Source of the DNA: a virus
Virus record (IMG/VR): IMGVR_UViG_3300029787_000001
Coordinates: 1-64,000 of that record
DNA: 64,000 bases
Reading direction: 5' to 3' (one strand)
Positions 36,759 to 53,315 of the stretch are shown one piece after another (within the stretch, counting starts at the first letter, position 1; every line of letters starts with the position of its first letter). The translations under genes and the position numbers were made by a program. Under the pieces are notes generated by a model that saw only the letters and a list, made by a program, of their open reading frames with translations, made no database searches and was not told where the DNA came from.

Positions 36759-36787
36759 CCGCTGGCACACCGGTTAAAGTGTGCCAC
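36759..36787 (+). repeat. Hairpin repeat copy 1
   Basis: CCGCTGGCACACCGGTTAAAGTGTGCCAC, 8-bp stem. Confidence 0.95.
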
Positions 36788-36990
36788 ACATGCTCACCAC
36801 CAACATAGGGTCCGAGTAGGTACAGGGAACTGGCTTCAGCGCTAATGCTGACTAAGATGATCCAGTAACGGAAACAACGCTCACCCGTGAGCGGGTCATG
36901 CTAATGATGTTGGAAACAATGTATAGGACAAGTTGATCACTTGTCCGAAAAGACGCCTAACAGAGATTAGGAGTGTCCCTGACATTGCAA
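36788..36990 (+). ncRNA. Candidate structured RNA between two hairpin repeats
   Basis: At least six complementary stems, no RBS/ORF. Confidence 0.5.
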
Positions 36991-37019
36991 CCGCTGGCAC
37001 ACCGGTTAAAGTGTGCCAC
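36991..37019 (+). repeat. Hairpin repeat copy 2
   Basis: Identical 29-mer, 5 nt before tRNA-Gln. Confidence 0.95.
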
Positions 37020-37024
37020 TTTAT

Positions 37025-37100
37025 TGGGACGTGGCGCAATTGGTAGCGCATCGGTTTTTGGCACCGAGGGTTGTAGGTTCGAGTCCTACCGTCCCAGCCA
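37025..37100 (+). tRNA. tRNA-Gln(TTG)
   Basis: U1-A72, G73, loop TTTTGGC, CCA. Confidence 0.9.
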
Positions 37101-37266
37101 CTTAAGAGGAAATAACATGAGCACAGTAGAGTTATGTTTTGGAATTTTGATTTCTGCAACGGTCATTATTGCCGTGATTCAGTACAAACTTTCAGAGTCT
37201 CCCGATCGTCGTAAATAAAAACACTTGACACCCGCACCTCTCCGGGTTACAATAGAGAGGACACAA

Positions 37267-37352
37267 GCCAGCGTGGTGGAATGGTATACACAGCAGACTC
37301 AAAATCTGCCGGTCTTATGACCTTGCGAGTTCGAGTCTCGCCGCTGGTACCA
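37267..37352 (+). tRNA. tRNA-Leu(CAA)
   Basis: GCAGA-CTCAAAA-TCTGC, long variable arm, CCA. Confidence 0.94.
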
Positions 37353-37375
37353 CTTTTCAAACAGGATAAAGCAAA

Positions 37376-37768
37376 ATGGGCATTTTTATCGTAACAGCAA
37401 CTCACACGGACGACGATTATAAGCGTCCCCACGTAAGCAGTGAAACTGCGATGGCCACTTCTCACGAAGACGCTGTTGTGCGTGCAGTAGAGTTCTATCT
37501 TGAAAGGCTCGATGGTGGCTATTCTTTCGATTACCACAATCCATCAGGGTTCAATAAGGTAATCGAGCAGCACCGAAACAGCCCACAGACTCTATTCTCA
37601 GCACTTTACGATTACTTTGAGAGCAACCCAGAAGGAATGTTTACTGGCGAGTTTGTCCCAGAAACCCTAAATGTGACCATTAGCGAAAACGAACACGTCC
37701 CGCTTGATACAAAGCCAATCCTATCTATGGTTGACGAGGTTTCTCGTTACATCAGAGAGGAAATGTAA
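37376..37768 (+). CDS. Hypothetical protein
   Basis: 130 aa ORF between tRNAs. Confidence 0.7.
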   Translation: MGIFIVTATHTDDDYKRPHVSSETAMATSHEDAVVRAVEFYLERLDGGYSFDYHNPSGFNKVIEQHRNSPQTLFSALYDYFESNPEGMFTGEFVPETLNVTISENEHVPLDTKPILSMVDEVSRYIREEM

Positions 37769-37782
37769 CAATAGAATATTTT

Positions 37783-37858
37783 GGGTCTATAGCTCAATTG
37801 GCAGAGCATCGGACTTTTAATCCGCAGGTTCTGGGTTCGATTCCCAGTGGACCCACCA
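37783..37858 (+). tRNA. tRNA-Lys(TTT)
   Basis: Loop CTTTTAA, CCA. Confidence 0.94.
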
Positions 37859-37877
37859 TTTAAAATAAGGAGAAGAG

Positions 37878-38402
37878 ATGTTTAAGAAAGTTTTGGCATG
37901 CATATTGTGCCTGGGGTTGTCAACAGCCGCATACGCTCAGGCGCCCGTAGCCGAGGATGCAGACGCATCTAAGATGGACTGGAATACTCGCAAGGGCATC
38001 CGGTTTGGATACAACTATGCAAACAAGGCAGATGAGTCAGACAAGCTTCAGAGCCCACACATGTTTGTGATTGGCTTTGAGATGCAGCAGACAATGGACG
38101 GCGATTCGTGGCTCGACTTGCTTTTTATTCAGAACTTGACCATCAGTGGTTTGGACCAAAGTGTTGTTCTTCCATCTGGAAACGCGCTTGTCGGATTTGA
38201 AATCAAAGATGCACTACAGTTGGCAGTGGGCGCTAACGCCACTATCGTTGATCCTTCTGATGAGGACCACTATGTACATCTTGTTACTGCGGTCGGGTGG
38301 ACGCAGGATGCGGGAATCTTCAGCGTCCCAGTTCATCTTATCTTTGTCCCAGATGTCAATGACTATTATAGGGTTGCAGTTACTACCGGGATTAACTGGT
38401 AG
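37878..38402 (+). CDS. Secreted/outer-membrane beta-rich protein
   Basis: Signal peptide ending AYA, alternating beta strands, aromatic C-terminal W. Confidence 0.7.
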   Translation: MFKKVLACILCLGLSTAAYAQAPVAEDADASKMDWNTRKGIRFGYNYANKADESDKLQSPHMFVIGFEMQQTMDGDSWLDLLFIQNLTISGLDQSVVLPSGNALVGFEIKDALQLAVGANATIVDPSDEDHYVHLVTAVGWTQDAGIFSVPVHLIFVPDVNDYYRVAVTTGINW

Positions 38403-38422
38403 TCATTGTAAATAACCGCAGG

Positions 38423-38446
38423 GAGGCACGGGTTTACAGGTGCCTC
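38423..38446 (+). repeat. Variant of the GGCAC..GTGCC hairpin
   Basis: GAGGCAC-GGGTTTACAG-GTGCCTC, 7 nt before tRNA-Glu. Confidence 0.65.
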
Positions 38447-38453
38447 AACTTTT

Positions 38454-38528
38454 GCTCCCATAGTTTAGCGGTTAGAATGCCGGCTTTTCACGCCGGAGGT
38501 CGGGGTTCGATTCCCCGTGGGAGTACCA
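38454..38528 (+). tRNA. tRNA-Glu(TTC)
   Basis: CCGGC-TTTTCAC-GCCGG, CCA. Confidence 0.92.
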
Positions 38529-38533
38529 TTTTT

Positions 38534-38609
<76 letters not shown>

Positions 38610-38670
38610 CTTTCCACTTGACACCGTCAGCCCCTCCGGTTACAATAGAGGGGAGGCACAGAACACTTAT

Positions 38671-38745
38671 CGAGAACAACGCGCGGGGTGTGCGGCCAGT
38701 TTTGGGTACTGGAAGTGCCGGGTTCAACTCCCGGGTTCTCGACCA
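38671..38745 (+). tRNA. Atypical tRNA-Pro(TGG)
   Basis: C1-G72, A73, CCA, CCAGT-TTTGGGT-ACTGG, T-arm intact; non-canonical positions 8/14 and D-loop. Confidence 0.75.
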
Positions 38746-38774
38746 TTTAACCTTTATTGAGATTGAGATAACAA

Positions 38775-38996
38775 ATGAGCAAGATTAGTATCCCACTCAC
38801 ATCACTGCTCCTGGCAGGATGCCCAGTAGCAATGGCTTTCGATCAGCCCACACTACCAGAATGCGTAATCGATCGGTGTGAAGAAAAAGTTTGCACAGTC
38901 GAGACACCAGAGGGCACAGTCGAGATTGCCAAGAAGAGGCACTATCAAGAGGGCACGCCAGTTGTGTGTCCGCTTTGGCTGATTGACCCCCGGTGA
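38775..38996 (+). CDS. Small Cys-rich exported/lipoprotein-like protein
   Basis: LLLAGC, five more Cys. Confidence 0.6.
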   Translation: MSKISIPLTSLLLAGCPVAMAFDQPTLPECVIDRCEEKVCTVETPEGTVEIAKKRHYQEGTPVVCPLWLIDPR

Positions 38997-39058
38997 CATT
39001 CCGTGACTTGACAGGCGCCCTCCAACGAGCTACATTACAAGAGTAACAGGGAGACAGA

Positions 39059-39265
39059 ATGTTTAAGGTCGGCGATGTCGTAAGAGGCAACACAGTTGAC
39101 ACCAGTCTATCAACTGCGTCCCAGAGAGCCTCCACTGGAATCATCACCAAGATCGATGAATGTGGTGCGATTTCGCTGTGTTGGCTTTTTGGTAAAGTCA
39201 AGTGCAAGGGCAAAGAGTTTGGCGGCTTTAGGAAACAAGAACTTGAACTGGTGAGCGAAGCATGA
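39059..39265 (+). CDS. Small MKVGD-family protein
   Basis: MFKVGDVVRG. Confidence 0.7.
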   Translation: MFKVGDVVRGNTVDTSLSTASQRASTGIITKIDECGAISLCWLFGKVKCKGKEFGGFRKQELELVSEA

Positions 39266-39444
39266 AAGTCGGTGACCTTGTGAAGTTTACTGCCGGGTTC
39301 GCTGGCGCTGAGCGCCGGCAACGCGGCATTGTCGTTTGTTTTGATAATGACAATGACCCAGTGGTTTTGTGGCTTGGTTCAGGGTGGAACGGCTACCGTG
39401 AGGCAAATTTTCGCAATCACATTGCAGTGCTTTCTGAGGCGTAG
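39262..39444 (+). CDS. Small MKVGD-family protein
   Basis: MKVGDLVKF. Confidence 0.7.
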   Translation: MKVGDLVKFTAGFAGAERRQRGIVVCFDNDNDPVVLWLGSGWNGYREANFRNHIAVLSEA

Positions 39445-39580
39445 CGAACTACTTATTGCCTCAAAGTAGGAGAGTAAAATGGACAGAGACCTCATGGCTG
39501 ATATCGGCGTAGTAGCCACAGTAATCAGCATGTTTTTCATTGTAACAATCTTTATGTGCTGATTGAAAACTATTTAGGTT

Positions 39581-40405
39581 ATGTGGCGCTCTGTTGTTTT
39601 AACCTTACTACTACAATCACAACCAAGTTGGCTGGAAATAGGCGACGCTCAATCGCGCTGTAGCCTCCAAGGTTGTCTTGTTGAGGCAACAACAACAAAG
39701 CCAATCCCACAAACAATCGAGAACATAGTAAAAGAACAAACATCGGTTTTCTATGAAGAAGACCGATTTTTTCTACATTATGATCTCCGCAAAAGGATTA
39801 GAGATTTCTTACAGGAACACCCAAACCAAACAAGATTCATCATTACAGGCTGGACTGATGGCTGCGGAGAACACGATTACAACAAAGAGCTATCCAGAAA
39901 GAGAGCAGATGAAGTTGCACGTTACATAATGCAACTTAGAAGGGGTGCTCTTGTAGAGTTGCGCTGGGTTGGAGAAGCAACTGGAAAACACACGATTAGA
40001 GCCCGTAGAGTGGATGTCGCTGTGCTGAAAAAAGCACAACAAACAATCACACCCCCCAAGATTATTTATGATTATTATTTGATCGATGCAAGTGGCTCTA
40101 TGTCCGGTCCTAAATGGAATAAGTGGACTAACGCTATCGCTTATTGGCGAAAGCCGACCTCCAAAGTTTATGTTTCTTCTTCTGGCTACATTCCTGCTTG
40201 GAGCATTCTACAAAACATTGGACCTTATGGTTCTACCGAGATTTGGCTGTCCTTGTGGAGCGTTCTTGATGAAATGAGCGCTGGGCAGACTTTGGTTGTG
40301 ATCAGCGACTTTAACTCTGAAGTTCCGCTTTCTGGACGAGAGCGTGAAAGGATCAGCCAGAAGGCACGCACCAGAGGGGTGAGGATCGACTACGTGAGAC
40401 TGTGA
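39581..40405 (+). CDS. Exported OmpA-like peptidoglycan-binding domain fused to vWA-like domain
   Basis: ITGWTD..G...YN..LS..RA..V and LIDASGSMS. Confidence 0.8.
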   Translation: MWRSVVLTLLLQSQPSWLEIGDAQSRCSLQGCLVEATTTKPIPQTIENIVKEQTSVFYEEDRFFLHYDLRKRIRDFLQEHPNQTRFIITGWTDGCGEHDYNKELSRKRADEVARYIMQLRRGALVELRWVGEATGKHTIRARRVDVAVLKKAQQTITPPKIIYDYYLIDASGSMSGPKWNKWTNAIAYWRKPTSKVYVSSSGYIPAWSILQNIGPYGSTEIWLSLWSVLDEMSAGQTLVVISDFNSEVPLSGRERERISQKARTRGVRIDYVRL

Positions 40406-40470
40406 CAAAGATCGTAGCGATTAGCCCTTGACAGACTCGACCCGGTCGGTTACATTATGAGGGAGGAGCA

Positions 40471-40665
40471 GTGGTGGAGCAGATTTCGTTTGTTATCCCC
40501 TTTGGCGACACCAGCGACCCCGAACAGATCGCCGCCCGCATCGCCAAAGAGCTACAGTTTCTCTCTTGGTTTGTGAAACAAGAAGAAAAGAATAATGACG
40601 ACGATGGCGTCGCAGCAACAACATTTACTTTGTCCGGCTGGACTACAAAATGGCAGGTAGAATGA
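40471..40665 (+). CDS. Small early protein
   Basis: Own promoter, GGAGG RBS, GTG start. Confidence 0.55.
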   Translation: MVEQISFVIPFGDTSDPEQIAARIAKELQFLSWFVKQEEKNNDDDGVAATTFTLSGWTTKWQVE

Positions 40666-40925
40666 AAGTAGCAGAACTAAAGGTCGGAGAACTTTACAAG
40701 ATTCGCTCAGATCGAGAGACACATGTCGCTATTCGGCGTGGATTTCTTGATGTTCATTTGGGCAGTGGGCTTTTCCAAACCGAAGGCGCAAAGATTCGCC
40801 CAATGGACCATCTTATCTATCTTGGACAAGATCGCCACAACACACGCTGGGTCAACTATCGTGGCAAGAAGCTGCGCGCCTATCCCAACATCTGGCAACA
40901 CATTACGCTACTGGAAGAGGGATGA
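40662..40925 (+). CDS. Small MKVGD-family protein
   Basis: MKVAELKVGELY. Confidence 0.65.
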   Translation: MKVAELKVGELYKIRSDRETHVAIRRGFLDVHLGSGLFQTEGAKIRPMDHLIYLGQDRHNTRWVNYRGKKLRAYPNIWQHITLLEEG

Positions 40926-41098
40926 AGACGGGCGACTTGGTAAAAGATGAGCACTATGGTGTTGGGATTGTTATCGAAGACTGGAAAGAAGACACTACCC
41001 ACTTAAACTGGCGAATCTACTTTATGCAAGATAGTACGTTGCTGCATGTGTGCGAAACTACAAAGTGTTTTATCGAGGTGCTCAGTGAAAGTAGGTGA
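40922..41098 (+). CDS. Small MKVGD-family protein
   Basis: MKTGDLVKD...VLSESR; 58 aa read by eye. Confidence 0.65.
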   Translation: MKTGDLVKDEHYGVGIVIEDWKEDTTHLNWRIYFMQDSTLLHVCETTKCFIEVLSESR

Positions 41099-41318
41099 TT
41101 TTATCCAGTCCTCAGCGTTTGTTGATCAGAACGGAATCATTCTGGAAACTGATGTTATCTCAAACCACCCGGATAATGAAACTTGGTTTCTTGTCCATTG
41201 GTTTACGACGATGTCCGGTCTCTCAATGAAAAAGGGTCGTCAAGAATGGCTGAGATCTTGGGAAATCGAACTGCGTGACTTGACAGATGCCTCCCAGCGA
41301 GCTACATTCCAAGAGTAA
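41085..41318 (+). CDS. Small MKVGD-family protein
   Basis: GTG start MKVGDFIQ. Confidence 0.65.
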   Translation: MKVGDFIQSSAFVDQNGIILETDVISNHPDNETWFLVHWFTTMSGLSMKKGRQEWLRSWEIELRDLTDASQRATFQE

Positions 41319-41329
41319 GAGGAGACAGA

Positions 41330-41575
41330 ATGGCTAACGGCTATGCCCTTTTTAAGAGCCTTCATCCTGTCGGCGGTCTCTATCGCTACAAGGCGCCGTA
41401 TGCTCCACAGGGCTTAAACCCTTGGAGTGACGGCAAGGTCTATCTCCTAACAAAGTGGGAAAGACCAGAGGGCATAGACAAAAAGTCCCCTCTTCTCAAC
41501 GCTTTCTTCCTTGTTAATGGAACGGAGCATTGTGTTGACATTTCTTTCTTCAAGTATCTTAAGGCAGTAGAATGA
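41330..41575 (+). CDS. Small early protein
   Basis: Own promoter (41280), AGGAG RBS. Confidence 0.7.
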   Translation: MANGYALFKSLHPVGGLYRYKAPYAPQGLNPWSDGKVYLLTKWERPEGIDKKSPLLNAFFLVNGTEHCVDISFFKYLKAVE

Positions 41576-41757
41576 AAGTCGGTGATCTGGTAAAGTATGC
41601 TTCAAATGATTCACCACTGGGTCTCTTTAGACGGAGCGGCGGCATTGTCACTGCCCAAAATAACAATCTTTTTGGTACTATTGTTTACTGGTTCAGAGAT
41701 AAACAGCGTACAGAAGAACAGGAAAAATACTTGGTGGTGATCAGTGAAAGTAGGTGA
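41572..41757 (+). CDS. Small MKVGD-family protein
   Basis: MKVGDLVKY...VISESR. Confidence 0.7.
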   Translation: MKVGDLVKYASNDSPLGLFRRSGGIVTAQNNNLFGTIVYWFRDKQRTEEQEKYLVVISESR

Positions 41758-41926
41758 TTTGGTAAAGCGGAAGACCCCTCCACCTCCAATGGGCTCCATC
41801 TGGAAAGGAATCATTATTGGAATGGGAGAAGAAAGCAACTTTGAGTGGATGGTTTACGACTTCTACGAGTCTTTTATTTGGTACGCCGATGCCGACGAGT
41901 TGGAGGTGATCAGTGAATGTGGGTGA
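41744..41926 (+). CDS. Small MKVGD-family protein
   Basis: MKVGDLVKR...VISECG. Confidence 0.7.
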   Translation: MKVGDLVKRKTPPPPMGSIWKGIIIGMGEESNFEWMVYDFYESFIWYADADELEVISECG

Positions 41927-42143
41927 TTTGGTAATGTGGAGGCATCCAGGCGATCGCAGCAAGCCAGAGTTTGGAATGATTATTGCGTTGCGTCCTTATC
42001 TGAAGCCACGCTTGGAGATCAAAGTTGTTGATCTTTGTGGAGAGCGCCAAGGCGGCACAGACTGGTGGGATGCGGGAGACTGGGAGGTAATCTCAGAAAT
42101 AGACTTGACAGATGACGCTGAACCGGCTACATTAAAAGAATAA
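41913..42143 (+). CDS. Small MKVGD-family protein
   Basis: MNVGDLVMW. Confidence 0.7.
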   Translation: MNVGDLVMWRHPGDRSKPEFGMIIALRPYLKPRLEIKVVDLCGERQGGTDWWDAGDWEVISEIDLTDDAEPATLKE

Positions 42144-42152
42144 GGAGACACG

Positions 42153-42836
42153 ATGGACTTGACCGATGAACAGATCGTCACGCGCTTGGGTGCTGTCAAG
42201 AGCCTGCCGACTTGCACTCAGTGGGCTACTGGTTTCGCTGAATCGATCATCGAACAGAGCAGCAAGGGTCGGATGCTCTCCGACCGACAGAAGGTGATCT
42301 GCTATAAGATCCTGAAGGAAAACAACGAAGAAGCACAGCAGTCGCTTGCTAACTGGGAGACCGAGTACAAGACAAAGCACGAGAAACAAGCTAAGCAGAT
42401 TGCAAACTATTACAGCGCCCAGGCTGCTGGCTACTTTGGTGATGTGGTCAAGGTTGTCTTGGCTGACGAAGTTCCCCCACGCGCCAAGTACCTTAAAATG
42501 CGTAACAACAAGTACGCAAAGAAGGTTCTTTCTGAGCTTGAGCGCAAGCCGCGCTTTAGCACAGATGATCACATCGTCCCAAATAGCAAGTTTCTTGCTG
42601 GCTATTCCCATAGCATGTCTATGATGGAGACTCGTGAAGGAAGGGCTCCAGCCAGCGCAGTTCGAGCGGACTTCAAGAGGCGCGGGGGAATCATTCTTTT
42701 TGTGGACGACAAGATTAAGTCTGCTGCCAAAGGTTCTAAGCGTTACCTTGTGTTGCCTTTTGGTTCTGCTGAGACTTACTGGTGTGAGGAGAGGTACCTC
42801 AAAATCAAGCCAAAGGCAAAGAAGGTGAAAAAGTGA
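42153..42836 (+). CDS. Hypothetical early protein
   Basis: Own promoter, AAGGAG RBS, 227 aa. Confidence 0.8.
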   Translation: MDLTDEQIVTRLGAVKSLPTCTQWATGFAESIIEQSSKGRMLSDRQKVICYKILKENNEEAQQSLANWETEYKTKHEKQAKQIANYYSAQAAGYFGDVVKVVLADEVPPRAKYLKMRNNKYAKKVLSELERKPRFSTDDHIVPNSKFLAGYSHSMSMMETREGRAPASAVRADFKRRGGIILFVDDKIKSAAKGSKRYLVLPFGSAETYWCEERYLKIKPKAKKVKK

Positions 42837-43018
42837 GAGTTTTGCCTGTTCCGCCTGTCGTGTTTGTTCCAAAAAAGACGGATAAGGTCCAAAATGACCC
42901 TGAACGTCGCAAGATCAAGAAGAAAAAGGCTTGACGGCTGACGATCGGTAGGTTATGTTATTGGAAAGGGAGCGAGCCGCGTTCCTTGCGAGAACACAAA
43001 AACAAAAAGAGGTGAATC

Positions 43019-43195
43019 TTGTGCTGGACCGCTATTGTTGTTAATGAAGAAGGAGGCTTCAGCCATTCTTTCTCTTTTATTGGCTCTCACGACAAGAGAG
43101 TAGCTTTTGAAGACGCACAGAGTCAGACCCCTTTATTGGTGGTCGCGATCGTCGCTGGCGATCATCCCGTCTACAACCCTGTTCTCGACTCGTGA
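43019..43195 (+). CDS. Small protein ending AIVAGDHPVYNPVLDS
   Basis: GAGGTG RBS, TTG start, 58 aa read by eye. Confidence 0.55.
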   Translation: MCWTAIVVNEEGGFSHSFSFIGSHDKRVAFEDAQSQTPLLVVAIVAGDHPVYNPVLDS

Positions 43196-43256
43196 CATTT
43201 GGTGACTTGATCTTCTGACGCAACCGGTTACATTATAGAAGAACCAAGGAGAGCAC

Positions 43257-44096: not shown

Positions 44097-44187
44097 GATC
44101 CGCACGCTGGCTTTCGCCCCCCTGTATGTAGCAGGGTGGGCGATCGTCGCTGGCGATCATCCCGTCTACAACCCAGACATCTCGTGA
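44086..44187 (+). CDS. Chimeric 33-aa ORF (possible duplication scar)
   Basis: N-half resembles 45069 ORF; C-half has 35 nt identical to the 43019 ORF end. Confidence 0.45.
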   Translation: MGSKIRTLAFAPLYVAGWAIVAGDHPVYNPDIS

Positions 44188-44260
44188 CAAAGATCGTAGC
44201 CGATCAGCCTTGACAGATTGAATGTGAGCGGTTACATTATCTGAGTAATGAGGAGGAAGC

Positions 44261-45922: not shown

Positions 45923-47005
45923 ATGGCGTTCGACTTCGCAACCTTCCTGACCACCGTTCCCTGCATCCTCGATGCCAAGCTCCCCGTGCTGGTCCGTGGT
46001 CGCCACGGCGTCGGCAAGTCCGAGGTGGTGTACAGCATCGCCAAGGAGCGCGGGCTGCCTGTTGTGGAGCGCCGCGCAAGCCAGATGACCGAGGGCGACC
46101 TCCTTGGTCTGCCTGACACTGCCGACCTCTCCGATGGTCGCAAGGCTACGACGTGGAACGCCCCAGACTGGCTGGTGACGGCTTGCACTGAGCCTGTGGT
46201 CCTCTTTCTCGACGAGGTTGACCGCGCTACGATGGAGGTCCGTCAGGGTCTCTTCGAGCTTACTGACAGTCGCAAGATCAACGGGTGGCACCTGCACCCT
46301 GAGACCCTGATCGTCGCTGCCGTCAATGGTGGTGAGCACGGGTCGCAGTACCAAGTCGGTGAGATGGACCCGGCTGAGTTGGATCGCTGGACTGTGTTTG
46401 ACGTGGAGCCCTCCGTCGAGGATTGGCTCTCATGGTCCTCCGGCAAGGTCGATGGTGTCCTGTGGGACTTCATTAACGGCAACCGCCAGCACCTTGAGCA
46501 CACCGACGACTACGAGCCCAACAAGGTTTACCCGTCTCGTCGTTCTTGGGTTAGGTTTGCTCGCACTGTCGAGCCTCTCGCCCTGTTCGCTGAAGAAGCC
46601 GACCGAGACCTGCTTCTCAACCTTGCCACTGGCTTCGTTGGCTTTGAGGCTGCCGTGTCTCTTCGTGATTTCGTGCAGAAGTACGAATATCAGGTCAGCA
46701 TCGCAGACCTCCTCGATGATGGCTCTTTCGACAAGATCGAGAAGTGGGGCATCAACGACCACGCTGCTATGGTTGAGAAGATGGAGCACGCCTCCACTTT
46801 CAGCGAGACCCTGAGTGACTCGCAGGTTACCAACCTTGCAACGTGGTTTGTCTCCATGCCTTCCGAGATCTGCATGAAGCTCTGGTCAGCGATCGGCGAT
46901 TGTGAGGACGAGAACGGCACTAACGCCATTCGTCTCCACAAGGCTACCGCCGCAGACGGCACCCGTGTGAGTGAGCACATGGTCACAATCCTTCGCGGGT
47001 CGTGA
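45923..47005 (+). CDS. MoxR/dynein-related AAA+ ATPase
   Basis: GRHGVGKS Walker A, LFLDEVDRA Walker B, MDPAELDRW. Confidence 0.92.
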   Translation: MAFDFATFLTTVPCILDAKLPVLVRGRHGVGKSEVVYSIAKERGLPVVERRASQMTEGDLLGLPDTADLSDGRKATTWNAPDWLVTACTEPVVLFLDEVDRATMEVRQGLFELTDSRKINGWHLHPETLIVAAVNGGEHGSQYQVGEMDPAELDRWTVFDVEPSVEDWLSWSSGKVDGVLWDFINGNRQHLEHTDDYEPNKVYPSRRSWVRFARTVEPLALFAEEADRDLLLNLATGFVGFEAAVSLRDFVQKYEYQVSIADLLDDGSFDKIEKWGINDHAAMVEKMEHASTFSETLSDSQVTNLATWFVSMPSEICMKLWSAIGDCEDENGTNAIRLHKATAADGTRVSEHMVTILRGS

Positions 47006-47008
47006 TTC

Positions 47009-47209
47009 ATGGAGCCTGCCCTCCGGGTCGGTGATCTGGTCACCCCTGCCAGTGCTACAAGTCCTGCCTTCAAGCAGAAGCACGGGTTCGGGGTGATCAT
47101 CGAGATCGATCGCAAGGATTCCTGGGATGTTATCGTCTACGTTGTAAAGTTCACCAAGTCGCAGCGCATCTATAGGTTTAGTTTCGATGGTGTGAGGCGT
47201 TATGAATAG
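47009..47209 (+). CDS. Small KOW-like protein
   Basis: LRVGDLV. Confidence 0.65.
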   Translation: MEPALRVGDLVTPASATSPAFKQKHGFGVIIEIDRKDSWDVIVYVVKFTKSQRIYRFSFDGVRRYE

Positions 47210-47444
47210 GACCGACAACATTAAAGAAGGTGACCTTGTTGTCCGCAGAGGAGACAAAAAGCCCTACATTGTGTTGGAGGTCAAGAGATATCAAAGAAAA
47301 GTCTACGGAGCAGGACCATCGGGAAATCGCAGAAAGAAGTTCTTACTACTTTCTCCTGACGGGCGGCAAAGTTGGAAGATTGACACAGCGATGAAAGTTG
47401 AGTTTTATCTGCCCGGTAGCCCCTACTTCGATGACATCCGTTGA
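47202..47444 (+). CDS. Small KOW-like protein
   Basis: IKEGDLVV. Confidence 0.65.
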   Translation: MNRTDNIKEGDLVVRRGDKKPYIVLEVKRYQRKVYGAGPSGNRRKKFLLLSPDGRQSWKIDTAMKVEFYLPGSPYFDDIR

Positions 47445-47514
47445 CAAAGATCGTAGCCGTCCAGCCTTGACAAACAGGGCTGGGCGTGTTACATTATAGA
47501 AGTAAGGAGGCACC

Positions 47515-48747
47515 ATGCCTGACAACAAGAAGCCATTTGACCTAAACCTGCACACAGCGCGGCTTCTCATGAGGGAACCATTTTTTGCTGCACTCTCACG
47601 GCGCATCGACAAGATCCGCACTGACAGTGTGCCGACTGCCGGTGTGCGGGTCAACCCTGACACCGCTCAGTTTGAGCTTTTCTACAACCCAGACTTCATG
47701 AGTTCTTTGTCTGACGACCACAAGATGGGCGTGCTCATGCACGAGTTCTATCATCTTGTTTTCGAGCATGTGACGACTCGCAAGCCAGAAGGCGGCATTC
47801 GCCAGATCGATAACATTGCCATGGATCTCTCGATCAACGGCATCTCCGAGATGCGTGGAAAGTTGCCCTGTGAGGCTTCTCCCGGTCCCGTCGTCACTCC
47901 CGGCGGTGAGCCGATGAAGGCGTGTCTGCCCGGCGAGGGCAAGTTTGCTGACCTGCCCGCCAATCAGACCTATGAGTGGTACCTCGCTGCTCTTGAGAAG
48001 ATGCAGGAAGAGGCAGAGAAGAACGGCGAGGGCAATCCTTTCGGTGACGCTGACTCGTTCGATGACCACGACGGCTTCGGCGAGGGCGGTGGCAATCAGG
48101 CAGCCAACGAGATCGCGAAGGAGCGCATGAAGGATGCGATCCGCAAGGCAGCAGAAGAAGCCGACAAGGCGGGCTCCTGGGGCTCCGTGTCCTCCTCGAT
48201 GCGGAAGTCTATCAAGGAGCGTCTCGCCACGAAGGTAGATTGGAAGAAGATGCTTCGCTACTTTGTACGCACAAGTCAGCGCGCCGACAAGCGGTCTACT
48301 CCGCGTCGTCTCAACAAGCGGTTCCCAAAGATTCACCCCGGCAAGCGGGTGCGTCGTCAGGCAAAGATCGCCATCTCCATCGACCAGTCCGGTTCTGTGG
48401 ATGATGGGATGCTCGCTGCGTTCTACTCTGAGTTGGACAACCTCGCACAGTTTGCCGAGTTTACTGTCATCCCGTTTGACACGGAAGTTGCGACCGACAA
48501 GGTTTATGTGTGGAAGAAGGGCGAGCGCCGGAAGGCTGAGCGTGTCCTGCATGGCGGAACCTGCTTCGATGCCCCCACACGGTTCGTCAATGATGGCAAG
48601 TTCGACGGACACATCGTGCTCACCGACATGATGGCTCCCAAGCCAATCGCCAGCAAGTGTCAGAGGATGTGGATGACGACCAGCGAGTACGCCCACAACC
48701 CCTACTTTTCCACAAGAGAGGTCGTGGTGGCGATTGACCGCAAGTGA
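47515..48747 (+). CDS. HExxH metallopeptidase-like plus vWA domain protein (DUF2201-type)
   Basis: HEFYH, NIAMDLSIN, IDQSGSV, GGT.F, LTD. Confidence 0.9.
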   Translation: MPDNKKPFDLNLHTARLLMREPFFAALSRRIDKIRTDSVPTAGVRVNPDTAQFELFYNPDFMSSLSDDHKMGVLMHEFYHLVFEHVTTRKPEGGIRQIDNIAMDLSINGISEMRGKLPCEASPGPVVTPGGEPMKACLPGEGKFADLPANQTYEWYLAALEKMQEEAEKNGEGNPFGDADSFDDHDGFGEGGGNQAANEIAKERMKDAIRKAAEEADKAGSWGSVSSSMRKSIKERLATKVDWKKMLRYFVRTSQRADKRSTPRRLNKRFPKIHPGKRVRRQAKIAISIDQSGSVDDGMLAAFYSELDNLAQFAEFTVIPFDTEVATDKVYVWKKGERRKAERVLHGGTCFDAPTRFVNDGKFDGHIVLTDMMAPKPIASKCQRMWMTTSEYAHNPYFSTREVVVAIDRK

Positions 48748-48832
48748 GACATCTGAAGACAAAGATCGTAGCGATTGACACTTGACAGACTCACCCCAGC
48801 AGGTTACATTACAAGAGTAACAGGGAGAGATA

Positions 48833-49018
48833 ATGTTTCTCAACATCCACCACCGCCACCTCCGTCCCCCGCCAGAGCCGGTGGTGTTCTTCTGCCGCCA
48901 CTGCGGGCACGGCTCCAAGAGGGACGGCGAGCGCATTCGCAAGGGCTCGTGGGCTGCTCACTGGGGCGGCGAGGGTTGCCCTGATTGCGGTACCTCCACT
49001 CCCCCCAAGAAGTGGTAA
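48833..49018 (+). CDS. Small Zn-ribbon protein
   Basis: CRHC...CPDC; own promoter. Confidence 0.7.
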   Translation: MFLNIHHRHLRPPPEPVVFFCRHCGHGSKRDGERIRKGSWAAHWGGEGCPDCGTSTPPKKW

Positions 49019-49022
49019 GCAA

Positions 49023-49223
49023 GTGACTGACGATGAAAGGATTGTAAATGCGTTTGTCAATCACTGGGGACTCACTTTAGAGGAAGCCCGCAAGGAGTTG
49101 ACAAAGGCAAAGGCGGACGCCAAGAAGAAGGCATGCCGACGAGAGGCTGAAAAGCAGTCACTCTGGAACAACGACAAGGATTGGGACTACTACCCAACCT
49201 TCCCAGAAAAGAAGGAACAATGA
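49023..49223 (+). CDS. Small hypothetical protein
   Basis: Operon ORF. Confidence 0.6.
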   Translation: MTDDERIVNAFVNHWGLTLEEARKELTKAKADAKKKACRREAEKQSLWNNDKDWDYYPTFPEKKEQ

Positions 49224-49405
49224 AGCATCCTTTCAAAGTTGGTGATCTTTTGCGAAGCAGGATGAACCGAGAAAACCTCGCCATCGTTTTGCAAGTTTAC
49301 ACAATGGACGGGCGCCCTTATTTGGATGTGAAATATCTCCGTGGCGATGTAGTCCCTTGTGTGCCTCTCCAGCGTTTTACCCTTATTTCGAGAGCAGAAC
49401 AATGA
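49220..49405 (+). CDS. Small MKVGD-family protein
   Basis: MKHPFKVGDLL. Confidence 0.65.
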   Translation: MKHPFKVGDLLRSRMNRENLAIVLQVYTMDGRPYLDVKYLRGDVVPCVPLQRFTLISRAEQ

Positions 49406-49593
49406 AGCCCATTCTCAAGACAATCGCCAAGGACATCATCGTCCTGTCCGCCCAGGCTCTCGCCTTTCGACTGGCAGCGCCCCAGGATCAGCAGCAGGAC
49501 ATCGTTTTCGCTGCTGTCCCAACGAAGGGCTCCACCGCGCTCAAGGCACTTCCCGCCGATGATGAGCCACAGGCACGCAAGGTCGGCTTCTGA
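49402..49593 (+). CDS. Small hypothetical protein
   Basis: Coupled ATGA. Confidence 0.6.
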   Translation: MKPILKTIAKDIIVLSAQALAFRLAAPQDQQQDIVFAAVPTKGSTALKALPADDEPQARKVGF

Positions 49594-50150
49594 GACATTC
49601 CAAGACAAAGATCGTAGCAGAAACACCTTGACAGATTGGCTCTAACAGATTACATTACAAGAGTAACAGAGACGGAGAAAGAACATGGAAGACCTGACCC
49701 CCCTGGACATCGCGCTTGAGACCACTGACCGAGTGATCGCAGCCATCACGACGCAGGCGACAGCAGCCCTGATTCCAGAGAACTCCGAGACGTTCCTGAT
49801 CGCCTACTGTGCCATGCTCGCTCCGGCAGAAGCATGAGCCAGGATCTCCGATTCCAGTGCGACGTGATTATGCTCTGCGCTGCTGGGATCTTGATCTGTG
49901 TCCTGCTCGCCTCAATCTTCCAAGAGTTCGGATGGACACTGTAGGCTGCCCCAGCCCGGACTATTTACTTTCGAGGTCCACCATGGCAAAGCGCAAGAAC
50001 AAGACCCCCAAGGGTCGCAACGTGATCGCCGTCGCTGCGATCACCCGTTCAGGCTGCAAGAAGCTCTGAGACGCTCAAAAAAAAGATAACAGAAAGACCT
50101 TGACAGATAAGACATAGCAGGTTACTTTGTAGAAGTAACAAGGAGAGCGA

Positions 50151-50357
50151 ATGTTCACTATCGGCAATCACATCCAGTTCACCTCCACCGGCTGTCGCGG
50201 TCTGGTGGTCAAGATCACCAAGCACGAGGGCGGCTGCGATGGTCGCGGCACTGAGTTCGTTCACGTCCTCTGCGGACCTGACGCTGACGGCGAGCACGGA
50301 GGTGAGACCATCGGCTTCCCGCGCCTGCATCTCGAAATGGTCGCAGAGGTCCTGTAG
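50151..50357 (+). CDS. Small KOW-like early protein
   Basis: Own promoter; FTIGNHI...G.RG.V. Confidence 0.7.
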   Translation: MFTIGNHIQFTSTGCRGLVVKITKHEGGCDGRGTEFVHVLCGPDADGEHGGETIGFPRLHLEMVAEVL

Positions 50358-50552
50358 ACCAGAGATTTCAGAAACAATCAAAAAAGCCCTTGACAGAAAC
50401 CCCCTGCCGCATTACATTACAAGAGTAACAAGGAGAGTGAGAGATGACCACCAGACAGAAGATGGCTGCTGCCGTAGTTGTTGACTATGCCTGCTGGTTC
50501 TCGCTTGGCTTTGTTGTTGGCTACTTCGTACTCTGAACACAAAGAGGATAAT

Positions 50553-50825
50553 ATGACTCGCAATGATTCCGTCGTCTCCGCTTTCGCCTCCGGTCGCCCT
50601 GCTCGTGCAGGAGCACTCCGCACCGATGGTCGCTCCCTCTACTCCTACGATCTGAAGATCGCCGAGAAGACCCTCGCCGGTGTGGTCGTCAGTGACTACA
50701 CCTCTGGTGGTGGACTGTTCGTCTCGCAGACCACGAGCCGCCACGTCGGGCTCGCAAGGCGCGTCGCAGACACAGTGATGCTCCCAGAGCAGTTCAAGGC
50801 ACTCTTCGTCAAGATGCCCTTCTGA
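50553..50825 (+). CDS. Small early protein
   Basis: GAGG RBS; LYSYDLKIA, TTSRHV. Confidence 0.7.
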   Translation: MTRNDSVVSAFASGRPARAGALRTDGRSLYSYDLKIAEKTLAGVVVSDYTSGGGLFVSQTTSRHVGLARRVADTVMLPEQFKALFVKMPF

Positions 50826-51007
50826 TGGGCGTTCTCGTCTCACTCTGCGAACACCGCGCCAAGCTCCGGCAGGAGGAGCAGGCGAAAACGCAGGAAGAAC
50901 TTGATCAGTTGAAGATTCTGGTGCGTGCCTGGGCGAATGCCATGGGAGATCCAGAGGTCAAGCCCTACTTCCTTCCCCTTGACGATCACCTGACAGAAAG
51001 TCCTTGA
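50825..51007 (+). CDS. Small early protein
   Basis: TGATG coupling; stop lies in next -35. Confidence 0.6.
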   Translation: MGVLVSLCEHRAKLRQEEQAKTQEELDQLKILVRAWANAMGDPEVKPYFLPLDDHLTESP

Positions 51008-51051
51008 CAGATTAGGCTCCTCAGGTTACATTACATGCATAAGAAGGAGAG

Positions 51052-51276
51052 ATGATGCTTCGCACTTCGCTGCCGCCCGGCACACTTGTCGAGATTCCTA
51101 CCGCGCATGGTCGTGGGTGGTTCCGCGCCCTCGTTCTCTCTGACTGGTTTCCGCGCGGTGGGGCTCACTGGTTCACGATCAGCGCCCTTGAAGCCGTCCC
51201 CGCCGCCTTTATTGAAAAGGGCGCGGTGCTCGACATCATGGACGACCCGCTCGATTTTCGTGTAGTTTCTGCTTGA
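51052..51276 (+). CDS. Small early protein
   Basis: Own promoter and RBS. Confidence 0.7.
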   Translation: MMLRTSLPPGTLVEIPTAHGRGWFRALVLSDWFPRGGAHWFTISALEAVPAAFIEKGAVLDIMDDPLDFRVVSA

Positions 51277-51323
51277 CAGAACACGATCACCGGACTACAC
51301 TACACGCACAAGAGGGAGAGAGA

Positions 51324-51557
51324 ATGAAGAAGAAGAAGCTGACCCCAAGCCTCCACGGCGACATTGGAATCGACACCCGCTCCAACCGCCAGCCCCGCAA
51401 CGTGATCGGCTACGCAGCCGAGCCCGCTGGAATCAGCGGCGGTCGCGTGTGGCGCCTGCACAAGGGGCAGCGCAAGTCCTGGCTGTGTGACACGGTGTTG
51501 CTCTCGACTGCCGAGAACATGGCAGCAGACGGCAATCTCGCCATCACGGAGAAGTAG
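51324..51557 (+). CDS. Small early protein
   Basis: Own promoter and RBS. Confidence 0.65.
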   Translation: MKKKKLTPSLHGDIGIDTRSNRQPRNVIGYAAEPAGISGGRVWRLHKGQRKSWLCDTVLLSTAENMAADGNLAITEK

Positions 51558-51633
51558 AAATAAAAGATCGCAGCAGAAAGTGCTTGACAACTCGCCCTGA
51601 GCGAGTTACATTACATGCAAGAAAGGAGAGCAC

Positions 51634-51864
51634 ATGAACGACCCCCGTGCGCAGTTCCGCGCACTTCGCCCGCCCACTGTTGGTTCGATGGTTATGCTGC
51701 CGGACCCGGACGAGACTGGCGAGACCCTCCACACTGTCATCCGTCGCGTTCGCGGCTCTGTGTACCGACTGGAGCACGATGACACCGGTGAGGAGGTCAC
51801 CGCCGACCTCGCCCAGAAGGGCACTGTCTGGACGGTCGGCTCGACCACCTACCGAATCGACTGA
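51634..51864 (+). CDS. Small SH3-like early protein
   Basis: Own promoter and RBS. Confidence 0.7.
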   Translation: MNDPRAQFRALRPPTVGSMVMLPDPDETGETLHTVIRRVRGSVYRLEHDDTGEEVTADLAQKGTVWTVGSTTYRID

Positions 51865-51942
51865 ACATTCTTTCCCGTTTCCCCTTGACAAGTGGAGCGG
51901 GACAGGTTACATTACAAGAGTAACAAGAAAGGAGAGATAACA

Positions 51943-52092
51943 ATGTTCCCCTACTTCCACCACTTCGCCGCTGTCATCTTCAACGATGTCCTCCTGAACC
52001 GCAACGATGCGGGTCTGCGGCAGAATCTCCGGTACCTCGCGCAGGACCTCGGCATCATCCCCGTCGATGACTGGGCGAGCAGCACCGACTGA
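51943..52092 (+). CDS. Small early protein
   Basis: Own promoter and RBS. Confidence 0.6.
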   Translation: MFPYFHHFAAVIFNDVLLNRNDAGLRQNLRYLAQDLGIIPVDDWASSTD

Positions 52093-52173
52093 GCGAACTT
52101 TCCTTCCACTTTCCCCTTGACAGAAGAACCCAGACAGGTTACATTACAAGAGTAACAAGAAGGGAGAGAAAAG

Positions 52174-52392
52174 ATGAACCAGATCGAAGCCCTCGACGTG
52201 CTCACGATGCACGATCTCTTCGGAGACGGCAGGCGCGACACCCTCACCGCCGCCATCGCGGTGATCGAGCCCATCGCCACCCGCCGCGCCCACAACGGGA
52301 CCGGCGACAGCATCGACTTCATGCTGGAGATGGTGCAGGGCGCCCGCGAGGATCTGTCTCGCATGGCTCCGTGCCCGTCCGGTCGCTGGTAG
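52174..52392 (+). CDS. Small early protein
   Basis: Own promoter and RBS. Confidence 0.7.
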   Translation: MNQIEALDVLTMHDLFGDGRRDTLTAAIAVIEPIATRRAHNGTGDSIDFMLEMVQGAREDLSRMAPCPSGRW

Positions 52393-52490
52393 CGCACACT
52401 GCTGAGAGGGCAGCGGGTTCGACTCCCGCACGGGTTAGCATCTGGCCGGCTGGTTGCTTCATGGGTTCGAGTCCCATGACCGGTAGCTCT
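52372..52490 (+). ncRNA. Tandem tRNA-like T-arm elements
   Basis: GCGGG-TTCGACT-CCCGC (52413-52429) and ATGGG-TTCGAGT-CCCAT (52461-52477); no full cloverleaf or CCA. Confidence 0.5.
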
Positions 52491-52627
52491 GCACGGACCC
52501 GTAGGGCGGCGACTCCCTCTCACTTTCCTTCCACTTTCCCCTTGACAGACTGACCCTAACGGGTTACATTACAAGAGTGAGAGGGAGACAGACTCCCCTC
52601 CAATCCCCAAGCAAGTGAGTTGACACC

Positions 52628-53038
52628 ATGGCTAACCTCTTCGTCCTGAACCTCGTCGGAACCACCGCCCCCCTCGCCGCAGACAAGAACGCCAACCGCC
52701 TGATCGCTCTCGCGGTCGATATGCTCGCAGGCGACAGTGCCCCGGAGCCGGTCGAGGTCCCCGACACCGACGCCCTCCGCGCTGCCCTGTTCACCCGCGT
52801 CGCCACTGGTGAGGTCTCCCCGGCAGACTGCGCCGCCGAACTGAAGGCAATCGATCAGCAGGTCGCTGACGCTGCGAAGGCTGCGAAGGCTGACCCGCCC
52901 GTGCTCTCGCTCGCTGGCACGCCGGCGTCCGCTGCGATGATTAAGAGGGCGTTTCGCGGAGCGGAGTCCGGCACGAGCGTGGAGGTCGCAAGCCTCGACG
53001 GCGAGCGCGTCGGTTCGATCACAATGTTTCGTTGTTAG
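52628..53038 (+). CDS. Ala-rich early protein
   Basis: Own promoter, 136 aa. Confidence 0.7.
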   Translation: MANLFVLNLVGTTAPLAADKNANRLIALAVDMLAGDSAPEPVEVPDTDALRAALFTRVATGEVSPADCAAELKAIDQQVADAAKAAKADPPVLSLAGTPASAAMIKRAFRGAESGTSVEVASLDGERVGSITMFRC

Positions 53039-53118
53039 GAATGTTCCGGGTCTGAGACTCCAAAAAAAGATAACAGAAAGCCCTTGACAGGTGAGCCCAT
53101 CCGGGTTACATTATAAGG

Positions 53119-53289
53119 GTAACAAGCGACAAGAGGTCCGCGACATGAAAGGTCCGAACTGAACATTCATGCATAGGCTGGGAGGCGTCCCACCTGTGAG
53201 CAGTAGCAAGAGCGACGCACAGAGGTGAACCTGACCCGAACGGGAGGGAACCTGCCTCTTCAAACACGACAGCAATAGTCCAACCCAGC
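53119..53289 (+). ncRNA. Candidate structured RNA from promoter 53084
   Basis: No RBS/ORF; nested stems GGCTGGG/CCCAGCC, GCGTC/GACGC, AGAGG/CCTCT, CATGAA/TTCATG. Confidence 0.55.
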
Positions 53290-53315
53290 CCGCTGGCACA
53301 CCGGTTAAAGTGTGC
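53290..53315 (+). repeat. Hairpin repeat copy 3
   Basis: CCGCTGGCACACCGGTTAAAGTGTGC. Confidence 0.95.

Follow-up and report, generated by a model that had tools for sequence, protein, structure and literature searches.

A predicted 28-nt pseudoknot at the gene and RNA boundaries of uncultured phages

The window analyzed here (positions 1 to 64,000 of the IMG/VR virus record IMGVR_UViG_3300029787_000001, 64,000 nt) contains a short hairpin that recurs between genes and close to tRNAs, which raises the question of what such a repeat marks. A sequence-only reading had proposed a dedicated tag that releases mature RNAs. From its fold and its contexts in other phages, we infer that the element is a 3′-boundary RNA module of the unit upstream of it and also a recombination junction; we put the probability of this reading at roughly 0.55.

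Copies in the window and their predicted fold

The three copies reported at 36759, 36991, and 53290 were confirmed: the exact 22-mer TGGCACACCGGTTAAAGTGTGC occurs on the + strand at 36763, 36995, and 53294 (0 of 100 shuffles with a match), and a search of both strands of the whole 191,359-bp phage genome returned no exact copies beyond these three. The stretch of identity is 29 nt between copies 1 and 2 and 26 nt for copy 3. As had been noted, no copy lies inside any plausible coding sequence. All three have the features that define the family, namely, a 7-bp stem, a loop of 8 or 9 nt, CT, and TAAA, together with an intergenic, sense-strand position shortly past an upstream unit (Table 1).

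Sequence comparison supports well the conclusion that the repeat is more than a hairpin and that its sense strand forms an H-type pseudoknot of 28 nt. In the predicted fold, stem S1 (4 bp) joins CCG and the base in front of it to CGGN, with which the loop begins; CU crosses as L1; S2 is a G+C-rich stem of 7 bp that stacks on S1; and NAAA closes the structure as L3. The hairpin energy is about −10.8 kcal/mol. All four S1 pairs are present in copies 1 and 2, and three of the four are present in copy 3. The frameshift signal of BWYV is a 28-nt minimal viral H-type pseudoknot with stems of 5 + 3. The element resembles it in size, in its 2-nt loop 1, and in an A-rich loop 3 in the S1 groove; unlike it, the element has the stem lengths swapped (4 + 7 versus 5 + 3) and lies after stop codons, at spacings not divisible by three, and is followed by no extended frame.

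Copies in IMG/VR show compensated variants of S2 (GGCACAC/GTGTGCC, GGCAGAC/GTCTGCC, GGCAGAT/ATCTGCC, GGTATAC/GTATACC, and GACACAC/GTGTGTC). In alignment A4, which was selected on S2 pairing and on the three inner S1 pairs, 98% of cells were paired (slid controls, 22 to 37%) and the covariation score was 0.252 versus 0.067, a score reached by 0 of 500 shuffles (alignment count). The only unbiased evidence for the structure comes from the flank-loop pair and from the fourth S1 pair. At 10 of the 11 IMG/VR loci where flank position 1 is not C, the loop base is complementary (forms GCG/CGC and ACG/CGT), and at 10 of 10 loci where loop position 3 is not G, the flank is complementary; the GCG/CGC form is also found in Xanthomonas phage XAJ2. 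The fourth S1 pair, never a selection criterion, was paired in 70 of 88 independent contexts, compared with 41.6 ± 4.2 in shuffles, and by five pair types. T8 and A21 to A23 were invariant in 88 sequences.

Table 1. Coordinates of the element and of neighboring features in the window
Feature	Position	Strand	Remarks
Sigma-70-like promoter	36044..36072	+	TTGACA-17-TACAAT
Candidate divergent member	36176..36203	+	S1 AGGT/ACCT; L1 GT; S2 TGTCCCT/AGGGGCG; L3 TAAA
Small acidic lipoprotein ORF, 50 aa	36598..36750	+	directly upstream of copy 1
Pseudoknot copy 1	36758..36785	+	S1 G-CCG 36758-36761 with CGG-T 36771-36774; L1 CT; L3 TAAA; S2 GGCACAC 36764-36770 with GTGTGCC 36779-36785
ncRNA-1, 204 nt	36786..36989	+	ORF-free; bracketed by copies 1 and 2
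Pseudoknot copy 2	36990..37017	+	core as in copy 1; fourth S1 pair A-T; closes ncRNA-1
tRNA-Gln	37025..37100	+	7 nt downstream of copy 2
Degenerate variant	38416..38446	+	CCGC-AGG-GAGGCAC-GGGTTTACAG-GTGCCTC; 7 nt before tRNA-Glu
ORF-free block	53119..53288	+	between sigma-70-like promoter 53084-53112 and copy 3
Pseudoknot copy 3	53289..53316	+	fourth S1 pair C/T mismatch; S2 closing pair G-U
RNA candidate, 185 nt	53326..53510	+	7-bp acceptor-like stem stacked on canonical T-arm

Family spread and genomic context

The family is large, spanning hundreds of uncultured phages, and is almost confined to phage contigs. We found 186 distinct copies, versus 5 in reversed or complemented controls, at 1 to 5 copies per genome and on podo-, sipho-, and myovirus-like contigs alike. 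Members occupy intergenic spacers, and their orientation always follows that of the genes. Contexts were counted over 88 independent ones from IMG/VR. A forward ORF ended ≤20 nt upstream in 55 of these 88, and the usual place of the element was 6 to 14 nt past a stop codon or at the 3′ end of a noncoding RNA. The genes upstream are usually those for abundant products (SSB, major capsid, major tail, and small lipoproteins): across 54 contexts, the upstream gene encoded SSB in 18 (phrog_1192, 9002, 7011, and 112), capsid in 3, and tail in 2, with small lipoprotein genes found there too. On podovirus-like contigs, it is found between the genes for the capsid and the tail-tubular protein, the position that T-phi has in T7. 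T-phi is the intrinsic terminator that follows the T7 capsid gene.

On the downstream side, most copies are followed by a ribosome-binding site (18 to 39 nt away), a promoter, or a tRNA, and the genes there often encode UvsX-like recombinases, exonucleases, or polymerases. A promoter followed in 5 of 88 contexts, and some copies have a TTGACA...TAnnnT promoter directly behind them. The tail has a purine at +1, C at +2, 41 to 62% T at +4 to +9, and 0 to 5% G at +2 to +6; TTT lies ≤9 nt away in 50 of 88 contexts, and a U-tract is missing in about 40%. Copy 2, with the tail ACTTTAT running up to tRNA-Gln, was the sole one of the three window copies called terminator-like by a consensus scan; copy 1 has no U-rich tail, and the tail of copy 3, CCCCTTTCT, is C/U rich.

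Units closed by the element and mosaic junctions

In the window, copy 1 lies 8 nt past the stop codon of a small lipoprotein ORF, and homologous genes adjoin family members in about 20 other loci. The noncoding block of about 200 nt that copy 1 was said to open is indeed present (ncRNA-1); it has no Rfam match and contains two long invariant islands common to loci L010 and L019. It is bracketed by the element on both sides in two phages, and its 3′ copy is kept in three (the window, L010, and L019). Because ncRNA-1 keeps this 3′ copy at L019, where there is no 5′ copy and where a promoter rather than a tRNA follows, the conserved linkage of the element is to the upstream unit and not to the following tRNA. 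In the window, copy 1 looks like the older element, at which a cassette made up of ncRNA-1 and copy 2 was inserted.

The distance reported for copy 2 needed correction, to 7 nt from 5 nt before tRNA-Gln; copy 3 ends 9 nt before the acceptor-like stem, which was found at 53326. That stem belongs to an RNA candidate with a fold z-score of −3.4, for which we found no homolog; the promoter-driven ORF-free block that copy 3 closes folds no better than shuffles (z-score of −0.8). Copies 1 and 2 have a single strong consensus-grade promoter (TTGACA as −35, at least 10/12 matches) upstream of them, at 36044 to 36072; the next is at 37225, and the gap from copy 2 to tRNA-Gln has none. Copies 1 to 3 neither contain nor abut a promoter, and no SSB gene is next to any copy in the window. 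That the copies punctuate a polycistronic early transcript is supported. The variant reported near 38423 is real, and its distance to tRNA-Glu was as described; it retains CCGC and the 7-bp hairpin, and CGG..AAA is gone from its loop. It shares both flanks with a canonical copy in a related phage (L034) and is therefore a diverged (decayed) ortholog.

Homology between phages often stops exactly at the element: 35 pairs of contexts share the upstream flank only, and 14 share the downstream flank only. One locus reads A-PK-B (L231) and another A-PK-X-PK-B (L247). Since the same ~27 nt recur at many boundaries, they would serve as a short homology patch for the swapping of gene and RNA cassettes. 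PeSL (promoter-early stem-loop) cassettes of T4-type phages (Arbiol et al. 2010, PMC2839356) are comparable: they too are short, strongly conserved regulatory modules that stand at gene boundaries where early regions are plastic, and recombination between their copies shuffles small genes; copies 1 and 2 flank ncRNA-1 in the same manner. Unlike PeSLs, the element has no strong sigma-70 early promoter of its own fused to it, forms a pseudoknot with a defined loop-flank helix, and is common to unrelated phage types rather than to one lineage. The PeSL stem-loop acts as a terminator, a role that the element may share; mini-circles are a PeSL trait.

Boundary function and alternatives

As a 3′-boundary module, the element could work as a partial (attenuating) intrinsic terminator, as a compact 3′-end cap, or as both. 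A cap would block 3′-to-5′ exonucleases at an end that termination, RNase E, or RNase P had produced. In the window, the units closed by the element would be the lipoprotein part of the message, ncRNA-1, and the promoter-driven RNA 53119-53288; where a tRNA begins 7 nt on, cleavage by RNase P would give an upstream RNA that ends in the pseudoknot. Like intrinsic (Rho-independent) terminators, the element has a G+C-rich stem of 7 to 8 bp, an A-rich 5′ side, a tail that is U rich in about 60% of contexts, and a place directly after highly expressed genes; unlike them, it has a loop locked to the 5′ flank with invariant loop and flank bases, and many copies lack a U-tract or, in some cases, are followed by a separate canonical terminator. 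Termination cannot be its universal activity, because copy 1 and so many other contexts have no U-tract. At copy 2, an efficient terminator would silence tRNA-Gln, given the lack of a strong promoter between them, and at L024, where a canonical terminator follows, the element alone is insufficient. Moreover, a terminator or cap leaves unexplained the near-invariant CU, AAA, and stem sequence across unrelated phages, which points to a tertiary fold, a binding partner, or homogenization by recombination.

A bolder version, which we consider doubtful, holds that the element is a portable, protein-independent gene-boundary RNA across phage families that seals RNA 3′ ends against exonucleases or senses SSB and is an integrase-free site of cassette exchange. 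Small genes, tRNAs, and noncoding RNAs would then be traded in an integron-like manner via an invariant 27 nt. If the boundary reading itself holds, the 28-nt fold, which is in no catalogue, would rank among the cis-acting RNA elements that are most widespread in uncultured phages. Simple reporters could in that case be used to ask how steps in expression are set within long phage operons, how abundant messages and small RNAs are shielded, and how small genes, tRNAs, and noncoding RNAs pass between unrelated phages. For annotators, the element would be a marker of cassette boundaries, and for synthetic biology, it could give a very small insulating or terminating part.

By analogy with the T4 gene 32 leader, the element might instead be an SSB-sensing operator: free SSB would nucleate at the pseudoknot and spread along the G-poor, U-rich tail, so that the ribosome-binding site of the next gene is blocked or message stability is changed. 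The T4/T2 gene 32 mRNA operator (PMC3014915) is likewise a compact H-type fold with two coaxial stems that is associated with a phage SSB gene, and gp32 of T4 recognizes the pseudoknot and then an A+U-rich stretch (PMC3014915). The element too is followed by an unstructured, G-depleted, A/U-rich stretch reaching the ribosome-binding site, and the SSB genes directly upstream, of four PHROG families, and the recombination and replication genes often found downstream agree with such a role. We nevertheless regard it as unlikely and rejected a gene 32-type operator, since the element stands on the 3′ side of ssb and not in the 5′ leader, with no ssb adjacent in the window. It also differs in sequence and in its 4-bp S1; it follows capsid, tail, and lipoprotein genes and noncoding RNAs as well; copies before tRNAs or promoters have no ribosome-binding site to block; and unrelated SSB families, whose binding is putative, would need to recognize one invariant RNA. 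The STAXI RNA motif (RF01728; Weinberg et al. 2010, PMC2864571) also comprises small pseudoknots near genes for SSB and other DNA-handling proteins on mobile DNA. It consists of two or three pseudoknots in tandem, with UUCG loops, and occurs in Enterobacteria, whereas the units of the element are single, and membership was rejected because no copy matched any Rfam covariance model, even at E up to 10.

The tag proposed by the sequence-only reading, which would be bound by a phage KTSC, CCHC, or KOW protein and release tRNAs and noncoding RNAs, appears quite improbable. It is true that tRNA-adjacent elements are always upstream and never just downstream of the tRNA, with a tight gap of 6 to 9 nt in the window and in five of six such copies elsewhere (16 nt in the sixth, L014), that ncRNA-1 is bracketed in two phages, and that a sequence-specific binder would be well served by the invariant bases of loop and flank. 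A tRNA leader or processing signal would, however, be consistently linked to RNAs downstream, and a tRNA follows the element in 5 of 88 independent contexts (about 6%), while 28 of the 157 loci in the tRNA tally have any tRNA. Most copies lie between protein genes and in very different phage types, and ncRNA-1 at L019 carries the 3′ copy only. A homolog of the KTSC protein was found in the closest relative alone (L009). What stands of the proposal is a structured, sense-strand element that almost certainly acts as RNA; its specificity for tRNAs and noncoding RNAs is not supported, and no dedicated binder is indicated.

We give little credence to an element acting at the DNA level, whether as a site of recombination or insertion, as a structure in single-stranded DNA, or as a hairpin promoter of a phage-specific kind. 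Coinciding mosaic breakpoints, a near-invariant sequence amid unrelated flanks, the closeness of SSB and recombinase genes, and the low copy number per genome would fit it. G-U wobbles, seen in S2 (GGCAGGC/GTCTGCC) and, in 23 of 88 contexts, at the fourth S1 pair, fit the sense strand only and thus argue against it, as do the constant orientation with the genes and the several copies followed by their own sigma-70 promoters. N4-type hairpin promoters have 3-nt loops, which the 8-nt loop of the element does not fit, and a sigma-54 promoter (TGGCAC-N5-TTGC) was rejected, the GC at −12, ten bases after GG, being absent (the element reads TGGCAC-ACCGG-TTAA). A very small ligand-sensing riboswitch, with the pseudoknot controlling a terminator stem, is very improbable: the compact H-type fold, which resembles the guanidine-III and preQ1 classes in topology, the invariant unpaired bases, and a stem doubling as terminator hairpin are set against neighbor genes without a common metabolic theme, copies that precede tRNAs and promoters, and no alternative anti-terminator pairing.

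The window also contains a candidate divergent member (36176 to 36203) that the earlier reading had missed, with tRNA-Met 12 nt upstream and the KTSC ORF 22 nt downstream. A strict structural scan gave no match on the minus strand, in reversed or complemented sequence, or in 30 block shuffles; its matches in the genome were this candidate and copies 1 and 2 only, the candidate having the fold of the copies with a wholly different sequence.

A pseudoknot recurs in the phage genome and in a wider family

The 22-mer TGGCACACCGGTTAAAGTGTGC occurred exactly at three sites of the window, all on the + strand, and matched in none of 100 shuffles (0/100), which bears out the three-site repeat claimed by the sequence-only reading. 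No further copy was present on either strand of the whole 191,359-bp IMG/VR record, which begins with the 64 kb of the window and is that of a myovirus-like phage (tail sheath, portal, DnaE-like polymerase and GroEL). Each copy folds as an H-type pseudoknot of 28 nt, in which a 4-bp helix between the 5' flank and the loop (S1) is followed by L1 (CU), a 7-bp stem (S2), no spacer, and L3 (N-AAA); the S2 hairpin alone accounts for about -10.8 kcal/mol. When the genome was scanned strictly by structure, only copies 1 and 2 and a single new site came up, the last with the same architecture in a wholly different sequence. The minus strand, the reversed and the complemented sequence and 30 block shuffles all gave no matches; copy 3 was missed through its fourth S1 pair alone. 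The diverged variant hairpin and a canonical copy in a related locus (L034) share their flanks, and the variant is thus a decayed ortholog rather than an independent motif. Of the spacings read earlier, the 7 nt between the variant and tRNA-Glu stood, while the distance from copy 2 to tRNA-Gln measured 7 nt rather than 5, and that from copy 3 to an acceptor-like stem 9 nt rather than 10.

Coordinates of the element and of other features (window positions unless a locus is named)
Feature	Position	Remarks
Copy 1	36758-36785	+ strand; 22-mer at 36763
Copy 2	36990-37017	+ strand; 22-mer at 36995
Copy 3	53289-53316	+ strand; 22-mer at 53294
New structural match	36176-36203	S1 AGGU/ACCU
Variant hairpin	38416-38446	
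Eight tRNAs	36087-38745	
Small lipoprotein ORF	36598-36750	
ncRNA-1	36786-36989	ORF-free
ncRNA-1 in two other phages	L010:3317-3545; L019:1940-2181	about 200 nt, ORF-free
Promoter driving the stretch closed by copy 3	53084	
Candidate tRNA-like RNA	53326-53510	185 nt; fold z -3.4; canonical T-arm with a perfect 7-bp acceptor-like stem stacked on it
Promoter-dense regions	35745-39036; 52542-54172	TTGACA-17-TACAAT/TACATT
DNA polymerase and HNH/endonuclease VII-like genes	4359-8875	polymerase of 1147 aa; phrog_405
PurZ-like ORF	9903-10940	phrog_1211
GroEL-like chaperonin gene	22970-24616	

The exact 21-mer core was found in 19 further IMG/VR stretches with unrelated flanks, and all 19 carried CCGC(T/A) upstream of the core, a flank that lay outside the search pattern. 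Scans of IMG/VR with relaxed loops and relaxed stems yielded many more copies, for which the counts are those of the matches listed and hence lower bounds: at least 186 distinct copies were collected, compared with 5 in controls, and these fell into 88 independent flank contexts among the matches listed. The same matches included compensated S2 variants (GGCACAC/GTGTGCC, GGCAGAC/GTCTGCC, GGCAGAT/ATCTGCC, GGTATAC/GTATACC and GACACAC/GTGTGTC) and gave the loop consensus CGG-NN-AAA(A).

On an alignment selected on S2 and the three inner S1 pairs, 98% of cells were paired and the covariation score was 0.252 versus 0.067, a score matched by 0 of 500 shuffles, with slid controls 22-37% paired. Because those helices were selection criteria, the unbiased tests of pairing are the flank/loop and fourth-pair counts. 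Among the matches listed, where flank position 1 was not C, loop base 3 was complementary in 10 of 11 loci (GCG/CGC, ACG/CGT), and where loop base 3 was not G, the flank was complementary in 10 of 10. The fourth S1 pair (the base before CCG with loop base 4), which is free of any use in selection, formed in 70 of the 88 contexts listed versus 41.6 +/- 4.2 in shuffled ones, as A-U, C-G, G-U, U-A or G-C. The G-U pairs and the constant co-orientation with genes, read from sequence, point to an element that acts as RNA and not as duplex DNA.

No Rfam family matched at any copy in the window or in the multi-copy loci at gathering or permissive thresholds; this includes ribozymes and STAXI, a known pseudoknot motif near ssb genes (PMC2864571). 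Sequence strings of the element met only chance primer matches in the literature, with no paper containing the sequence found, and a catalogue of structured RNAs from IMG/VR lists candidates upstream of gp32 without it.

The element lies at gene ends and at mosaic junctions

Among the matches listed, a forward ORF ended within 20 nt upstream of the element in 55 of 88 contexts (mode, 6-12 nt), and an RBS with a start codon followed in 43, mostly 18-39 nt away. A TTGAC...TAnnnT promoter came after it in 5 of the 88 and a canonical terminator in one (L024). The tail beyond S2 was non-random in the same matches, with a purine at +1, C at +2, 41-62% T at +4 to +9 and 0-5% G at +2 to +6, and about 40% of contexts had no U-run. 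Upstream ORFs of 80 aa or more were present in 54 of the listed contexts, and here the upstream gene encoded an SSB in 18 (four PHROG families, six BLAST clusters), a major head protein in 3 and a tail protein in 2. Genes on the 3' side include UvsX-like recombinases, exonucleases, polymerases, tail-tubular proteins and methyltransferases. Five podovirus-like contigs (L174, L213, L218, L229 and L239) carry the element between the major capsid and tail-tubular genes; in T7, this interval is occupied by the T-phi terminator. Copy number is low, from 1 in a 395-kb genome to 5 in a 47-kb fragment.

Sequence similarity often broke at the element. Among the matches listed, 35 context pairs shared the 150 nt upstream and nothing downstream, and 14 shared the downstream side but not the upstream one. 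Locus L231 has the form A-element-B, whereas L247 reads A-element-X-element-B, with X as a cassette that has gone in between two copies; the window has this form too, with ncRNA-1 enclosed by copies 1 and 2, which are identical over 29 nt. In about 20 loci (e.g., L121, L231, L247 and L242), a homolog of the small lipoprotein ORF adjoins a family member. This gene (signal peptide, lipobox Cys, acidic or Thr-rich tail) is a cassette flanked by the element in many marine phage contigs.

Only two of the 50,697 GenBank phage records in INPHARED carry the element: the cultured Xanthomonas phage XAJ2 (KU197014), in the compensated GCG/CGC form at about 32,485-32,513 on the complement strand, and an uncultured gut phage. 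In bacterial genomes, the window's stem variant had no matches and the commoner stem matched 14 contigs, mostly Victivallales/Lentisphaerae MAGs, which are probably mobile DNA. On Victivallales/Lentisphaerae contigs (L268:3300-3437; L270, L271, L273, L275, L279), the element and a U-run end a conserved non-coding stretch of 60-110 nt, which could be a further small RNA that shares this 3' module and may reside on mobile DNA.

ncRNA-1 and neighboring RNAs

The ORF-free block between copies 1 and 2, ncRNA-1, is conserved in two other phages and had no Rfam match. Two long invariant islands, around ATGCTCACCACCAACATAGGGTCCGAG and TCACCCGTGAGCGGGTC..GCTAATGATGTTGGAAA, are common to the three phages. 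The element stands at the 3' end of ncRNA-1 in all three (3/3), and L019 lacks a copy in front, so the stable association is that of ncRNA-1 with its 3' element. What follows this 3' copy in L019 is a U-rich tail with a sigma-70 promoter, where the window has tRNA-Gln.

No strong consensus-grade promoter was found between 36044 and 37225, and therefore tRNA-Met, the KTSC ORF, tRNA-Arg, the lipoprotein ORF, copy 1, ncRNA-1, copy 2, tRNA-Gln and a small ORF would form one transcript. Copy 3 closes an ORF-free stretch with its own promoter and is followed by the candidate tRNA-like RNA, on which the intron mode of ARAGORN made only weak calls, judged unreliable; searches of IMG/VR by its T-arm and acceptor (3' end) found no homologs. 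Two regions of the window are dense in near-consensus sigma-70 promoters, and a AAAAAAGATAAC-like tract upstream and CCGGTTA ahead of the -10 are common to many of them. Every one has a small gene, tRNA or RNA downstream; the result is a PeSL-like early region.

Inferred function and competing explanations

Beyond its fold, family, positions, gene associations and breakpoints, we infer a function for the element as a 3'-boundary module. It would work as a terminator that attenuates transcription and/or as a cap proof against exonucleases, placed after units whose products are required in quantity. Where a tRNA lies downstream, RNase P cleavage would leave the 3' end of the upstream RNA just beyond the pseudoknot. 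The element may also be reused as a short patch of homology for cassette exchange, as has been described for PeSLs (PMC2839356). Several points weigh against this reading: many copies, copy 1 among them, have no U-tract; efficient termination at copy 2 would rule out expression of tRNA-Gln; and a simple terminator does not account for CU, AAA and the stem being nearly invariant.

The main rival, by analogy with the T4 gene 32 leader (PMC3014915), is an SSB-sensing operator. The linkage to SSB genes and the G-poor tail speak for it; it is weakened by the large number of contexts that lack an SSB gene or an RBS. A dedicated tag releasing tRNAs and noncoding RNAs and bound by a phage protein, as the sequence-only reading proposed, suits a minority of copies: among the matches listed, a tRNA followed 6 of 186 copies (5 of 88 contexts; five at 6-9 nt, one at 16 nt), and none of the 186 lay shortly after a tRNA. 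A phage-specific or sigma-54-type promoter is at odds with the flank-loop covariation, the absent -12 GC and the promoters that follow some copies, and was rejected. So was a CRISPR-like solitary repeat, since no conservation extends beyond the 3' side of the hairpin and spacing is irregular, and so was a stop-codon read-through or frameshift signal, since the spacers come in every length and lead into no extended frame. Long reverse-strand ORFs called naively across the element start just past it and are shadow frames.

Other genes of the window were also recorded. One ORF matches a PHROGs family labelled '2-aminooxy adenylosuccinate synthetase', and this PurZ-like match hints at 2-aminoadenine (Z) DNA in the phage. 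The phage also encodes a GroEL-like chaperonin, and its DNA polymerase gene is directly followed by an HNH/endonuclease VII-like gene.
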